From assembly GCF_056712565.1 (NCBI RefSeq), contig NZ_CM160072.1: DNA of 64,000 nucleotides, one strand, 5' to 3'. The notes beneath the pieces are model-generated. The model was given only the letters and a program-made list of their open reading frames with translations, was not told the DNA's origin and searched no databases. The translations under genes and the position numbers were made by a program. Below, piece by piece: positions 53,847 to 62,026 of this stretch. Position 1 is the first letter of the stretch. Each line of letters opens with the position of its first letter.

Positions 53847-53937
53847 TATTTATATTGCGAATAATTTATGTAAATAATGGCTTTTTAAATTCAGGGGGTG
53901 AATAAAATTACTCGGCGTCATCTCCGCGGGATTTTCA

Positions 53938-55692: not shown

Positions 55693-56964
55693 TTAAACCA
55701 GGAACAGTGAAATCGCCGGGATATATGTCACCAGCATTAGCATTAACAGTAGAGCCGCCAGTAGGGGCAGGGATTGTTTAAAGAAATTTCCCACCGAAAC
55801 TTGCGTGATATTACATACCAGCAGCATCACGGTACCTACCGGTGGCGTGAATGCGCCAATCGACAGGTTGAAGATCATGATGATGCCAAAATGCACCGGA
55901 TCGATGCCAAAGTGTTCGACCACCGGTTTTAATAGTGGTACCAGGATCAGCAAAATGGCGTTTCCTTCCAGAAACATCCCCAGCGTCAGCAGCAATATGT
56001 TGATAATCAACAGGAACATGTATTTGTTTTCGGTCAGCGAAGTCACAAAATTCGCCACTGCGACACCAGCATGTTCCATTGAGAAAATCCATCCCAATGC
56101 GGCGCTGGCCATGATTACCAGCATCACCGATGCGGTTGCGCGTGCCGTTTCGCCCAATGCTTTGACGACATGAGAAATCCGCATTTCACGATAGATAAAA
56201 AAGCCAATCGCCAGCACGATTAGCACCGCTACTGCACCTGCTTCTGTTGGGGTGAAAATGTTAGCGCGAATACCACCCACCACAGCAAAAATGAGGAACA
56301 GCGCAGGCCAGGCCTGTCCCAGCGAGAACACCACCTCTTTGCCCGTAGGCCAGCTTTCACGCGAGGGTTTAGCGTTAGTTTTGCGGGCGACAAGGTAGAC
56401 GGTAAACATCAGTACGACTGCGCATAGCAAACCAGGTACCAGTCCGGCGATAAACATTTTTCCGATAGAGACATCGGCAACCAGACCGTAAATAATCAGG
56501 GCTATTCCAGGCGGTATGATCGGGGTGACTAACGAGCCACCAGCGGTAATGGCGGCGGCAAACGCGCGATTGTAGCCTTTACGTTCCATCTCCGGCACCA
56601 TCATGCGCGACAGCATCGCCGCGTCAGCAAGGTTAGAGGCGCTGACGCCGCCCATCATGGTGCTGACGAGAATGTTTGCCACGCCCAGTCCGCCGCGCAT
56701 TTTCCCCACCAGAACGTTGGCAATGTGCAGGATGCGTTCGGCAATGCCGGTGTAGCTCATTAGTGTGCCGAGCAAGATAAAAAACGGAATTGCCAGCAAT
56801 GATGGGCTTTGCGTTGGCGCGATTAGTCTTTGCACGGCAATTTCAATCGGTACGCTGGAGAAGAATAAAAAGTAAGCGATGATGCCAATAAACATCGCCA
56901 GATAGACCCGAATGTTGAGAAACAAACAGACGATCATTAGCGGAATAATCAATAACCAACTCAT
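55693..56964 (-). CDS. TRAP transporter large permease (DctM family)
   Basis: 423-aa polytopic ORF; 4-nt overlap with the upstream DctQ-like gene. Confidence 0.8.
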   Translation of the reverse strand: MSWLLIIPLMIVCLFLNIRVYLAMFIGIIAYFLFFSSVPIEIAVQRLIAPTQSPSLLAIPFFILLGTLMSYTGIAERILHIANVLVGKMRGGLGVANILVSTMMGGVSASNLADAAMLSRMMVPEMERKGYNRAFAAAITAGGSLVTPIIPPGIALIIYGLVADVSIGKMFIAGLVPGLLCAVVLMFTVYLVARKTNAKPSRESWPTGKEVVFSLGQAWPALFLIFAVVGGIRANIFTPTEAGAVAVLIVLAIGFFIYREMRISHVVKALGETARATASVMLVIMASAALGWIFSMEHAGVAVANFVTSLTENKYMFLLIINILLLTLGMFLEGNAILLILVPLLKPVVEHFGIDPVHFGIIMIFNLSIGAFTPPVGTVMLLVCNITQVSVGNFFKQSLPLLAALLLMLMLVTYIPAISLFLV

Positions 56965-57434
56965 TGCATTTTGTCTCCGCTATCGGATTGTTTTGTATCG
57001 TTTATTAACCAGTAGAGGGTATAAATAGCCGTTGCCAGTGCGCCGACAGGGACCGCCAGATCGATCCAGAACCAGGAAACTTTCAGAATTTGTGTCACTT
57101 TAAACTGCGCCATTTCGGCTAGTCGGTAGCCCAGCCAGGCCATATAAAGCAGCAGTGCGATGGAGAGAAGGGCGACCAGTACTGCAATAACACGCCTGAG
57201 TTTGCCTGGAAGCATCTCCATCAGGAAGGGAATGGTCAGGTGCGCCCTGTCACGTTCCGCCACCACTCCACCTAACATCACCACCCAAATCATCAGCATT
57301 CCCGACATTTCTTCTGTCCATTGAAGCGGTTGGCCGATGAAATAACGCATAAATACCGCTCCAATTGTCACCACAACCAGAACGAATAGCGCAAAGGCAG
57401 CACTAAATTCTGCCACTTTGCCAAAAAGACGCAT
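56961..57434 (-). CDS. TRAP transporter small permease (DctQ family)
   Basis: 157-aa ORF with four predicted TM helices between the DctP-like and DctM-like genes. Confidence 0.75.
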   Translation of the reverse strand: MRLFGKVAEFSAAFALFVLVVVTIGAVFMRYFIGQPLQWTEEMSGMLMIWVVMLGGVVAERDRAHLTIPFLMEMLPGKLRRVIAVLVALLSIALLLYMAWLGYRLAEMAQFKVTQILKVSWFWIDLAVPVGALATAIYTLYWLINDTKQSDSGDKMQ

Positions 57435-57497
57435 GAAACCTCCTGTTAGTGCGTGTCCTGCCTAAGAGAGATGAGGCAGGACGCTGAGCATTAATGC

Positions 57498-58469
57498 TTA
57501 TTGCAGTTGCTGTTGAATGGTTTCGTACAGACCTGGTGTCCATTCCGGGAATTGAGAGTAAACTTCGCGTGCTTTCTTCTGGAATGGTCCAGTATCGGGA
57601 TAGATCACTTCGACGCCGGCTGCCTGCATGGTTTTCAACATTTCGGCATCACGCTCAAGAGTGAGTTTCTGGCTATAGACACCCGCTTCATAGCCGGTCT
57701 GGTGGATCATCTCCAGTTGTTCTGGTGAAAGGGTGCTAAAGAAGGCTTCACCACCTATCCACACTGAGGTATTTGTCAGGTAGTTAACCATTGTCAGATA
57801 TCTTGCCTGCTCATACAGTTTTTGCCCTTGCAGCACTGAAATTGGGTTTTCTACGCCGTCAATAACGCCCTGGGTTAATGCGGGATAAACTTCGCCTAAT
57901 GGCATGGGAGTTGGTGTTGCCCCCATCGCCTGAATGGCTTTTATTTGCATGACGTTATTAGGAACGCGAATTTTTAAACCTGCGAGATCGTCAACGGTGC
58001 GAATGGGTTTTTTCGAAATAATCTGTCGAGTGCCATAGAGATAATTATTCATTACCACATGAATTCCCTTTTTCTTCAGACTTTCATTTTTTTGTTTAAA
58101 CCAGTCGCTTTCATATATTTTGAACAGTTTTTGCGGATCGTCAGTCAGATACGGTCCAAACAAAATCCCCAAATCGGGTTCATAATCGGCAAGAAAAGCC
58201 ACATCACTCAAGGTTATGACATTCATGCCCATCATGGCTTGCTCGGTGACATCCTGTTTTGATCCCAATTGGGAGCTGGGATAGAGCGCAAGTGTTATTT
58301 CGCCATTACTTTTTTTATTTAATAGGTCTGCCCAGTAACGCATGACCACATCCAGGGGTTCTCCAGGGTTATTTTCATAGGCAACTTTTATTGAAATAGG
58401 TTTTGCCTGGATTATTGACGGTAAAAAAAGGGTACTGACAGTAATTAGCATCGCTATTATTTTGCTCAT
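57498..58469 (-). CDS. TRAP transporter periplasmic solute-binding protein (DctP family)
   Basis: 323-aa ORF with signal peptide MSKIIAMLITVSTLFLPSIIQA; first gene of a dctPQM-type operon; AT-rich codon usage. Confidence 0.8.
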   Translation of the reverse strand: MSKIIAMLITVSTLFLPSIIQAKPISIKVAYENNPGEPLDVVMRYWADLLNKKSNGEITLALYPSSQLGSKQDVTEQAMMGMNVITLSDVAFLADYEPDLGILFGPYLTDDPQKLFKIYESDWFKQKNESLKKKGIHVVMNNYLYGTRQIISKKPIRTVDDLAGLKIRVPNNVMQIKAIQAMGATPTPMPLGEVYPALTQGVIDGVENPISVLQGQKLYEQARYLTMVNYLTNTSVWIGGEAFFSTLSPEQLEMIHQTGYEAGVYSQKLTLERDAEMLKTMQAAGVEVIYPDTGPFQKKAREVYSQFPEWTPGLYETIQQQLQ

Positions 58470-59159
58470 CTTTACTTACTCCATGCTAAGGAAATAAAAC
58501 TCCAACATTGTTGTCGGGAGTGAAACCTTATGAAAAAGCAGTCATTACTGAAAAGTAGTCAGCGAATAGCAGAATGGCTGCAGATGTATCATAAATTCGT
58601 GCACCGGGTAATACTTTGCTGCTTTTAATCGGTTTTTAATGCATTTTTTGATTGTATATCTTAAAGTTATGTAATGCATGACGTTACAAGGAACACCCTC
58701 TGATGAGTTTAGTTACCGCTGATAAGATCTCTTATTCTGTTGATGATTTATTAAAAATAAAATCATTAATTTGGCTGCGGCCATTTTAAATTGTCAATAC
58801 AGATAAAAACTAAGTGTTGACGCAGAATGGTGGTATCCATTAAATTTATTTAGTGCTGATTTAATACATTTGCTGAACGTATAATTCATGCTGATATTAA
58901 AAGAAAACCGTCATTCACTAAATAACTTGTTCGGCAAGGAAATCAGAGAGTAACGGATGATTCGTTACAACGGGGAAAGGCAGTAAATATTCACGTGGTG
59001 AATTTGTTATCAACTTGAAAACTCATTTTACTGGGTTCCTTCTGATCATGTGAGTGAACGCAGTGATTAATGATTAACGTTAAGTGCTAACCAGAGCGCT
59101 TTTTATGAAGTTAAATTAATAATATCCATTATTTATGAATGAGGAAGCCTGTTTATTAT

Positions 59160-60812
59160 ATGGAAATACTTTTAACAATTTTAATTCTTACGTTGGTAGT
59201 ATCATTAACCAGCGTGCTTACACGTCTGTCTCCTGTCCAGATACCACTTCCTTTAATCCAGATTGCCGCTGGCGCAGTACTGGCCCAGCCTATATTTGGT
59301 CTGCATGTGGAATTCAATCCTGAACTTTTTCTCTTATTGTTTATACCACCCCTGTTGTTTGCTGAAAGTTCAAAAATACAACCTAAAGAATTGATCAAGC
59401 ACAGCCGGGAAATTATCAGCCTGGCACTTGTGTTGGTACTAATCACTATTTTTTGTGTCGGCTATGTGATTCATTTACTCTTACCGAATGTGCCGCTCAT
59501 CGCTGCTTTCGCATTAGCCGCCGTGTTGTCGCCTACCGATGCCGTGGCGTTGCTGGGGATTGTCGGGAAAGGGCGTATCAGCAAAAACATCCAGGAAGTG
59601 CTCGAAGGCGAAGCGTTGATGAATGATGCTTCCGGCCTGGTGGCGTTGAAATTTGCTGTTGCAGTGACGATGGGAACGATGGAATTCAGCGTTCATGGCG
59701 CAACCATTGCGTTTTTTGTCGTTGCGTTGGGCGGTATTGCCGTGGGGATCGCTGTTACCTGGTTATATGGTAAAGGGCTGCTGTTGATCAGCCGATATGC
59801 TCACGATGAACCTTCCATTCAGATTGTATTGATGCTTCTGTTGCCGTTTATTGTTTATCTGGTTGCGGAACATTTTGGCTTATCTGGCATTCTTGCCGCT
59901 GTCGCCGCGGGGTTAACAACCAGTCGCATTGGTGTAGTCCACCACGCGCCTATTCGCCTGAGAATTAAAGCTAAAAGTAGCTGGTCGATGCTTGAATATG
60001 TCTTTAACGGCATGGTGTTTCTGATTTTAGGCTTACAACTGCCGGGCATTATTTCGGAATCACTGATCCGTGCAGAAAACGATCCACTGGTGGACACCGG
60101 ATCGCTGCTCCTTGATGTCATTTGGATCTACCTGGCGTTAATGGTTGTGCGCCTGGGCTGGCTTTGGCTGATGCGTCTGTATAGCCGTAAACGACCCGGC
60201 AAACATCCGATGCTGTTTGCTGGATATAAAACGCGTCATATGCTGCTGGCGACCTTTGCGGGGGTGCGCGGAGCTATCACGCTTGCGGGGGTGCTTTCTA
60301 TCCCGTTATTGCTGCCGGATGGCACACCTTTTCCCGGGCGTTACTTGCTGGTATTTCTCGCCACAGGTGTGATCCTCTTTTCGCTGGTTTGCGGCATTAT
60401 TATTCTGCCGTTATTACTGGGGAAAAATGTGGGGATTTTCAGCGATAACCGACAAAAAGAAGAGGAAGCTGCCGATCTGTTTATGGCTAAAATGGCCATA
60501 CTGAGTGTGCAAAAGACCGAGCAACGTTTGCTGCGCGCCAGAACAGAAAACCTCGATAACGAGTTGATTATGGAAACGGGGGCCAGAGTTATCGGTTATA
60601 TGCGACATAGTGAAGAGGATATGTCGCCTAATGATAATTCCCTGCATATGCAGCGTGCGAAGCTGGAAAGAACATTTAATCTGGCGGCGTTAAATGCCAA
60701 ACGCGCGGCTATTTACCAGATGCGCGCAAGGCAAGAAGTCAGTGATGAAACACTGGCAAAAATAGTCAGTGAATTAGATGTGCTGGAAACGTTAATCATG
60801 GATAGCCGATAA
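59160..60812 (+). CDS. CPA1-family Na+/H+ (cation/proton) antiporter
   Basis: ORF 59139-60812; start likely MEILLTIL; N-terminal transport domain with NhaP-like motifs (SPTDAVALLG, EGEALMNDASGLV) and a long cytoplasmic tail. Confidence 0.75.
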   Translation: MEILLTILILTLVVSLTSVLTRLSPVQIPLPLIQIAAGAVLAQPIFGLHVEFNPELFLLLFIPPLLFAESSKIQPKELIKHSREIISLALVLVLITIFCVGYVIHLLLPNVPLIAAFALAAVLSPTDAVALLGIVGKGRISKNIQEVLEGEALMNDASGLVALKFAVAVTMGTMEFSVHGATIAFFVVALGGIAVGIAVTWLYGKGLLLISRYAHDEPSIQIVLMLLLPFIVYLVAEHFGLSGILAAVAAGLTTSRIGVVHHAPIRLRIKAKSSWSMLEYVFNGMVFLILGLQLPGIISESLIRAENDPLVDTGSLLLDVIWIYLALMVVRLGWLWLMRLYSRKRPGKHPMLFAGYKTRHMLLATFAGVRGAITLAGVLSIPLLLPDGTPFPGRYLLVFLATGVILFSLVCGIIILPLLLGKNVGIFSDNRQKEEEAADLFMAKMAILSVQKTEQRLLRARTENLDNELIMETGARVIGYMRHSEEDMSPNDNSLHMQRAKLERTFNLAALNAKRAAIYQMRARQEVSDETLAKIVSELDVLETLIMDSR

Positions 60813-60982
60813 TTTTATCGCTGCCAGTAATAGGGAATTAAATGATGGCTGAGAGTAATACTTCCAGCATCGTTTATTCCCTATGTATTTCCTTATGGGC
60901 AGAACAATCGCCTGGATTAATACTGCATTAATACAACATAGTGATATAAACCAAGAATCAATGTTTTTAATCTGTACTTAAT

Positions 60983-61888: not shown

Positions 61889-62026
61889 TCTTCCCTCCAG
61901 TCCGGCATTAAAAGCCGATTTAAAACATTTTTATGCGCGATCATCCGCATATTTTATGGGTAAATTCAGGCGCTCTTATAAATTCGACGATATCTGAAAG
62001 TCATAAAATAAAAGGAGCGGTGAATC

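Follow-up and report, generated by a model that had tools for sequence, protein, structure and literature searches.

A conserved inverted repeat upstream of an accessory Na+/H+ antiporter gene in Escherichia coli: a putative regulator site in an inserted cassette

Here we describe a short inverted repeat in the divergent spacer between a TRAP transporter operon and the gene of a CPA1-family Na+/H+ antiporter, whose outer arms are kept in the diverged Escherichia-type lineages while its centre varies. Judging from this pattern, it most likely represents a conserved cis-element of the long upstream region of the antiporter gene, and we tentatively read it as a putative binding site for a dimeric regulator, a reading that we hold to be quite possible, if still short of probable. 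The features discussed are collected in Table 1, where the window is the whole stretch of DNA that was analyzed, 64,000 nucleotides in length.

Table 1. Features of the locus (positions in the window, unless a contig is named)
Feature	Position	Strand	Remarks
Inverted repeat ATTCAC-GTG-GTGAAT	58989-59003		
Promoter-like element TTGACG-17/18-TTAAAT/TAAATT	58817-58846	+	within island 58814-58846; candidate antiporter promoter P1
Conservation island GTGATTAATGATTAAC	59061-59077		TTAAT-G-ATTAA dyad or GATTAAY tandem; up to 12/15 columns invariant
lgo motif copy ATTAAAAACCGATTAAAAGC	58621-58640	-	borders the ancestral dctP/lgoT upstream region, some 150 bp before dctP
lgo motif copy ATTAAGTACAGATTAAAAAC	60963-60982	-	abuts the lgoR stop codon; direct repeat with 58621-58640 around the cassette
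lgo motif copy ATTAAAAGCCGATTTAAAAC	61907-61926	+	lgoR-lgoD divergent region
CPA1-family Na+/H+ antiporter, 550 aa	59160-60812	+	about 59% identical to YjcE-type proteins; gene after the palindrome
dctPQM TRAP operon	55693-58469	-	DctP 323 aa, DctQ 157 aa, DctM 423 aa
dctP, first gene of dctPQM	57498-58469	-	start codon at 58469
lgoR-type GntR/FCD regulator, 301 aa	60983-61888	-	only regulator gene adjoining the cassette
Inserted cassette (inferred)	58641-60962		antiporter gene with about 520 bp of AT-rich DNA upstream of it (palindrome included) and about 150 bp on the other side
Citrobacter dctP-upstream dyads	L013 6932-6944; L021 and L022 2932-2944		

Sequence and conservation of the inverted repeat

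Read directly from the sequence, the repeat consists of two perfect 6-bp arms separated by a 3-nt spacer (15 bases), as it had been described in the original prediction. Taking the antiporter start annotated by RefSeq/PGAP (59160), it ends 157 bp upstream of the gene, in agreement with the distance of about 160 bp proposed at that time. Its host is the spacer of 690 bp and 33.6% G+C (58470-59159) that separates dctP, on the minus strand, from the antiporter gene, on the plus strand.

As a bare palindrome, this element is not above chance. In Markov simulations of the same spacer, at least one perfect 6-N3-6 palindrome occurs with P = 0.28, and at least one palindrome with any spacer of 0-10 nt occurs with P = 0.94; under the latter definition, six palindromes are observed in the 690 bp and 3.6 are expected. 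Perfect 6-N3-6 palindromes are found 20 times in the whole window, and the exact pattern, with at most one mismatch, occurs twice in it, vs. 0.14 expected occurrences. A second ATTCA-N5-TGAAT copy lies at 53889-53903, upstream of tsr at a distance of about 85-100 bp; this strain and K-12 (L086 1051-1065) have the same arms there, and the centre reads GGGGG in the former and GAGTG in the latter.

The comparison of orthologous spacers gives a different picture from these counts. Nine sequences were aligned, i.e., seven E. coli haplotypes, an Escherichia sp. E4742-like locus whose antiporter is 96% identical (L012), and a metagenome locus whose antiporter is 91% identical (L007). The parts of the spacer near dctP and near the ATG are well conserved in this alignment, and the stretch 58690-59100 is strongly diverged, with 22-58% invariant columns per 50 bp. 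Within this diverged stretch, only three islands reach at least 10 invariant columns out of 15, namely 58814-58846, the 15-mer starting at 58989, which is the palindrome itself (10/15), and 59061-59077. The palindrome is the best of the 187 15-mers in 58860-59060, for which the mean is 4.6/15, and the binomial probability of such conservation is about 0.005, with only about three independent lineages behind it; given that this 15-mer was chosen before any comparison, the value can be considered a fair though rough measure. The island at 59061-59077 is the best conserved of the diverged spacer.

The invariant core of the palindrome comprises ATTC (58989-58992), C (58994) and TGAAT (58999-59003), whereas positions 58993 and 58995-58998 are variable. 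Genomes and metagenomes together yielded 26 E. coli haplotypes of the form ATTCAC-[G/A]TG-[G/A]TGAAT, in which SNPs within the palindrome are confined to 58995 (G/A) and 58998 (G/A), and the GTG centre present in the window is a minority form among them. L012 reads ATTCGC-GCA-ATGAAT, and both L007 and the contig L129 read ATTCAC-ACT-ATGAAT. Pairing of the arms is lost at the sixth position in L017, L012 and L007, and in L012 also at the fifth, the dyad symmetry being a perfect 6+6 in the window and a 5+5 or 4+4 core across all lineages. Perfect 6-bp arms are lineage-specific and restricted to a part of E. coli, and the conserved core is better written as ATTCA-N5-TGAAT or ATTC-N7-GAAT.

Furthermore, the distance from the palindrome to the ATG is fixed at 156-158 bp in all lineages, and the arm positions match those of E. 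coli in 11/12 cases in L007 and in 10/12 in L012. Both diverged lineages thus keep the outer arms, although only about 30-45% of their flanks is conserved. Among the six perfect palindromes of the spacer, that at 58989-59003 has the most conserved arm positions and the dyad best kept in the other lineages: five of its six arm pairs persist in L007, and the remaining five palindromes retain at most 4/6 pairs and 1-10 of 12 arm positions. It had been set out beforehand that the motif should be conserved in orthologous regions, and within Escherichia this is what was found, with the outer arms kept and the centre varying. The metagenome scan contributed no new lineages, its yield being limited to E. 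coli haplotypes and a single L007-like contig. Two particular alleles deserve mention: one haplotype, on the metagenome contig L124, has lost the right arm through a deletion of 22 bp (58998-59019), and E. coli strain 74-2 (L019 1959-2939) carries an IS5 that separates the palindrome region from the start of the antiporter gene.

The combination of invariant arms and a free centre is best accounted for by a dimeric DNA-binding protein. Such a protein, encoded elsewhere in the genome, would bind the dyad, each monomer reading an outer ATTCA half-site, and the five central bases would be free to vary. It must be considered, nearly on a par with protein binding in its likelihood, that the palindrome appeared by chance and has no function, its conservation in two diverged lineages being a sampling accident within an AT-rich, horizontally acquired spacer. 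The simulated frequency of 6-N3-6 palindromes and the presence of six palindromes in the spacer are consistent with this, and so are the lineage-specificity of the perfect arms, the absence of the element from more distant antiporter loci, the existence of a natural deletion variant, the fact that no regulator or known motif fits, and the small number of lineages compared, effectively three independent ones. Chance would have to explain, however, that a 15-mer specified in advance turned out to be the top one in 200 bp, and an association of variable centre and invariant arms that neutral drift does not predict.

The antiporter cassette and the L-galactonate locus

Many E. coli chromosomes match the region at 100% identity, and a good number of these come from extraintestinal infections of humans, poultry and dogs; the region is present in 863 of 5426 complete E. 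coli genomes (about 16%). The order of the genes is btsT, tsr, dctMQP (-), the spacer, the antiporter gene (+), lgoR (-), lgoD (+) and opgB. In K-12, the MFS transporter gene lgoT comes immediately after lgoR, in the place occupied here by the TRAP genes and the antiporter; the TRAP operon itself replaces the K-12 lgoT at this chromosomal site. Other arrangements are found in Citrobacter, where lgoD is followed by lgoR-dctPQM with a lgoR-dctP spacer of 171 bp and without the antiporter, and in a Pectobacterium, where lgoR is followed by lgoD-dctPQM.

The Citrobacter lgoR-dctP spacer is collinear with the 170 bp of the E. coli spacer nearest to dctP, and its first 20 bp (ATTAAAAACACATTAAAAAC) also align beside the E. 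coli lgoR stop codon. Relative to Citrobacter, we infer that the antiporter gene and its AT-rich upstream DNA constitute a later insertion of about 2.3 kb, flanked by direct copies of a 20-bp motif, and it is this duplicated motif that defines the cassette boundaries given in Table 1. Since the palindrome lies inside the AT-rich 520 bp of the cassette, it belongs to the latter and not to the ancestral TRAP upstream region. In turn, the TRAP operon keeps that ancestral upstream region, common to Citrobacter and to the K-12 lgoT, together with the 20-bp motif.

This location has consequences for the function that can be assigned to the repeat. It had been proposed as a candidate operator of the acquired transporter genes; the operator-like part of that proposal agrees with the conservation observed within Escherichia, whereas joint control does not, because an element inside the inserted cassette, 520 bp away from a dctP gene that has kept its own ancestral upstream region, would be at most an element of the antiporter. 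Hence the palindrome probably concerns the antiporter only, and would not act on the TRAP operon.

With regard to the substrate of the TRAP system, the E. coli DctP is closest to the proteins of PDB entries 4ovt and 4o8m, which we take to be L-fuconate and L-galactonate binders. A TRAP transporter with dual L-fuconate/L-galactonate specificity is placed in an lgoD locus in the passage of PMC5507952 that cites Vetting et al. (2015). On both grounds, the TRAP system most likely transports L-galactonate (L-galactonate/L-fuconate) in these strains, standing in for LgoT as a non-orthologous replacement.

Regarding the other contents of the spacer, an origin of the palindrome in a repeated or mobile element was discarded, the spacer being single-copy in E. 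coli genomes, and no small conserved ORF was found across the palindrome. A 44-aa ORF exists at 58545-58679 on the minus strand, upstream of dctP on the same strand, and shows 60% identity over 38 aa to an ORF of L007; it lies in the dctP-proximal block that is conserved at the DNA level and may therefore be non-coding.

Promoter, leader and regulator readings of the dyad

In the promoter scans, the element at 58817-58846 was the only sigma-70-like match found at a homologous position in all three lineages. About 310 bp separate it from the ATG of the antiporter gene and, if it is indeed the antiporter promoter, the palindrome would occupy about +136 to +150 of a leader of approximately 305 nt. 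The palindrome is thus placed about 140 bp downstream of the predicted P1, and the scans revealed no conserved -10 or -35 beside it. A protein bound to the dyad would act on the transcription of the antiporter gene, in one direction or the other, either as a roadblock or by looping, or else from an upstream site of a weak promoter that escaped recognition.

It could be argued instead that the left arm, TTCAC(A/G), is the -35 hexamer of a second antiporter promoter and that the dyad symmetry is incidental. In most E. coli haplotypes the hexamer reads TTCACA, with 5/6 matches to TTGACA, and the scan of L007 gives TTCACA-17-AAAAAT starting in the left arm. However, no acceptable -10 exists in E. 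coli at 16-18 nt (ACTTGA), none was returned by the scans of the window or of L012, and the equally invariant right arm, TGAAT, would be left without explanation, all of which makes this proposal improbable.

A hairpin in the RNA, with an AUUCA/UGAAU stem in the approximately 305-nt leader transcribed from 58817-58846 and acting on stability or translation, seems to us slightly more improbable still. The RNAalifold consensus does keep the 5-bp stem in all five sequences, the A-to-G change of L012 giving a G-U pair, and it includes 19 consensus pairs with double changes, compared with 3-9 in slid controls. Nevertheless, the hairpin amounts to only -3.3 kcal/mol (z = -0.35 vs. shuffles), it is not used in the minimum-free-energy fold of its 111-nt context (58940-59050), and its stem is invariant rather than covarying, the variation being confined to the loop. 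Moreover, the single-sequence minimum-free-energy structures of E. coli and of L012 or L007 share 0 base pairs, so that the consensus is probably over-fitted. Rfam gave no match at E <= 1 on either strand of 58300-59300, cation riboswitches included, and the scan reported no intrinsic terminator at the palindrome, whose stem is AT-rich and is not followed by a T-run.

Coming back to the dimeric regulator, the comparison with known regulator sites that had been suggested as a check did not yield a fit, GntR/FadR, CRP, ARG-box and NhaR sites being among those tried. The ARG box of ArgR is TGAAT-N4-ATTCA and the MetR site is TGAA-N5-TTCA; the palindrome has the pentamers ATTCA and TGAAT in common with them, but in the opposite orientation (ATTCA-N5-TGAAT), and there is no second box at a 21-bp phase, so that both were rejected. 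Likewise, the tetramers TCAC and GTGA are found in the palindrome as in the CRP site, TGTGA-N6-TCACA, but the half-sites come in reversed order, 3 nt apart, and no TGTGA stands 6 nt from either half. The LysR-type pattern T-N11-A is formally satisfied (TTCACGTGGTGAA), though it is too loose to be diagnostic. FNR, Fur, lambda-CI-type operators, NtrC, matS, SlmA, the DnaA box and the marbox were compared by eye, and none fits. NhaR, the regulator of the Na+/H+ antiporter gene nhaA, was of interest given that here, too, a Na+/H+ antiporter gene lies downstream, but the palindrome is unlike its proposed consensus, TCgaAAAAatCtA (PMC6307784), and there is no LysR-type gene adjacent to the cassette or in it. 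No regulator gene travels with the cassette, and a literature search for the motif found it in none of the papers covered.

The sole adjacent regulator gene is lgoR, and the palindrome could in principle be an operator of its product, a GntR/FCD protein, which would then coordinate the antiporter with the L-galactonate genes. Operators of the FadR subfamily of GntR regulators (PdhR or LldR type) read ATTGGT-N3-ACCAAT, and the palindrome resembles them in being a 15-bp 6-N3-6 dyad with outer ATT and AAT next to a GntR/FCD gene. The inner triplets differ, being CAC and GTG instead of GGT and ACC, and the GT-N-AC core (TnGT-N3-ACnA) is lacking. Besides, the lgoR-lgoD spacers of E. coli, K-12, Citrobacter and Pectobacterium contain no ATTCA...TGAAT dyad; what they carry instead is the 20-bp motif ATTAAAAnCCGATTTAAAAC, also present upstream of dctP and lgoT. 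We consider control of the palindrome by LgoR very unlikely, the least credible of the readings presented in this section.

The 20-bp motif, dyads beyond Escherichia and the pairing of antiporter and TRAP genes

If the dyad is a real site, it would offer a handle on the control of an accessory Na+/H+ antiporter found in E. coli from extraintestinal infections; a short candidate operator without a named regulator is nonetheless a routine finding, of modest practical value. More is learned from the by-products of the analysis, namely how the cassette came to be inserted, the conserved 20-bp lgo motif and the repeated association of this antiporter clade with TRAP systems.

The 20-bp motif, ATTAAAAnCnGATTwAAAAC, is made up of two ATTAAAAnC units about 11 bp apart, and three copies of it are located in the surroundings of lgoR. 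K-12, Citrobacter and Pectobacterium have it as well, both between lgoR and lgoD and ahead of the transporter gene, whether lgoT or dctP; in Affinibrenneria and Edaphovirga, motif-like matches precede dctP by 270-330 bp. This distribution suggests that the motif is likely an operator or promoter element of the L-galactonate regulon, and as a candidate for the control of the TRAP and lgo genes it is far preferable to the palindrome. We know of no earlier description of it.

More distant orthologues of the antiporter, those of Limnobaculum, Edaphovirga and the locus L008, lack the palindrome in their upstream regions. Together with Klebsiella sp. I138, these form a clade of antiporters at 76-77% identity, whose upstream regions are unalignable with that of E. 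coli except at the start codon. A scan of genome contigs with the antiporter gave no confirmed relative. A dyad of similar arms, CATTCA-CCA-TGAATG, is present in the TRAP-antiporter spacer of Klebsiella sp. I138, 178 bp upstream, and is missing from its close relative Limnobaculum. In addition, three Citrobacter genomes (Table 1) contain ATTCAC-NN-TGAAT (ATTCA-N3-TGAAT) 69 bp upstream of dctP, with TA, GC or TC in the centre; at the homologous position in E. coli there is no dyad. In a C. amalonaticus genome (L068), the right arm of this dyad reads TGATT.

It is tempting to regard the Escherichia, Citrobacter dctP and Klebsiella sp. I138 dyads as sites of one unrecognised regulator, which would link the expression of a dedicated Na+/H+ antiporter with the uptake of sugar acids by Na+-dependent TRAP systems, in E. 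coli of the ExPEC type and in their relatives. The occurrence of such dyads in at least two of six unrelated spacers had P = 0.005 in a simulation, in a test that was picked after seeing the data. The half-sites are 3 nt apart in Citrobacter and Klebsiella and 5 nt apart in E. coli, which argues against a single binding geometry. On balance, a common regulator appears to be a long shot.

The pairing itself extends beyond Escherichia. In Klebsiella sp. I138 (L004 1169-7650) and Limnobaculum (L009 and L010), the antiporter of 77% identity is divergently paired with a TRAP operon; the spacer there measures about 700-750 bp, the DctP is only 26% identical to that of E. coli, and a GntR/FCD regulator is also present. 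The recurrence of the TRAP-antiporter pair in at least two unrelated arrangements suggests a functional coupling of Na+ extrusion with Na+-driven uptake.

Finally, two chimeric antiporters were encountered. P0072 (L003 6001-7653) joins a YjcE-like N-terminal part of 300 aa to a C-terminal part of 250 aa identical to that of the present antiporter, in a context that runs from soxRS-ghxP to lgoR-lgoD. P0083 (L011 1133-2782) is its converse, with a crossover near residue 150 and a context that runs from dctP to actP-acs. Large inversions between the two paralogues, with these genes at their junctions, would explain both, as would assembly artefacts.
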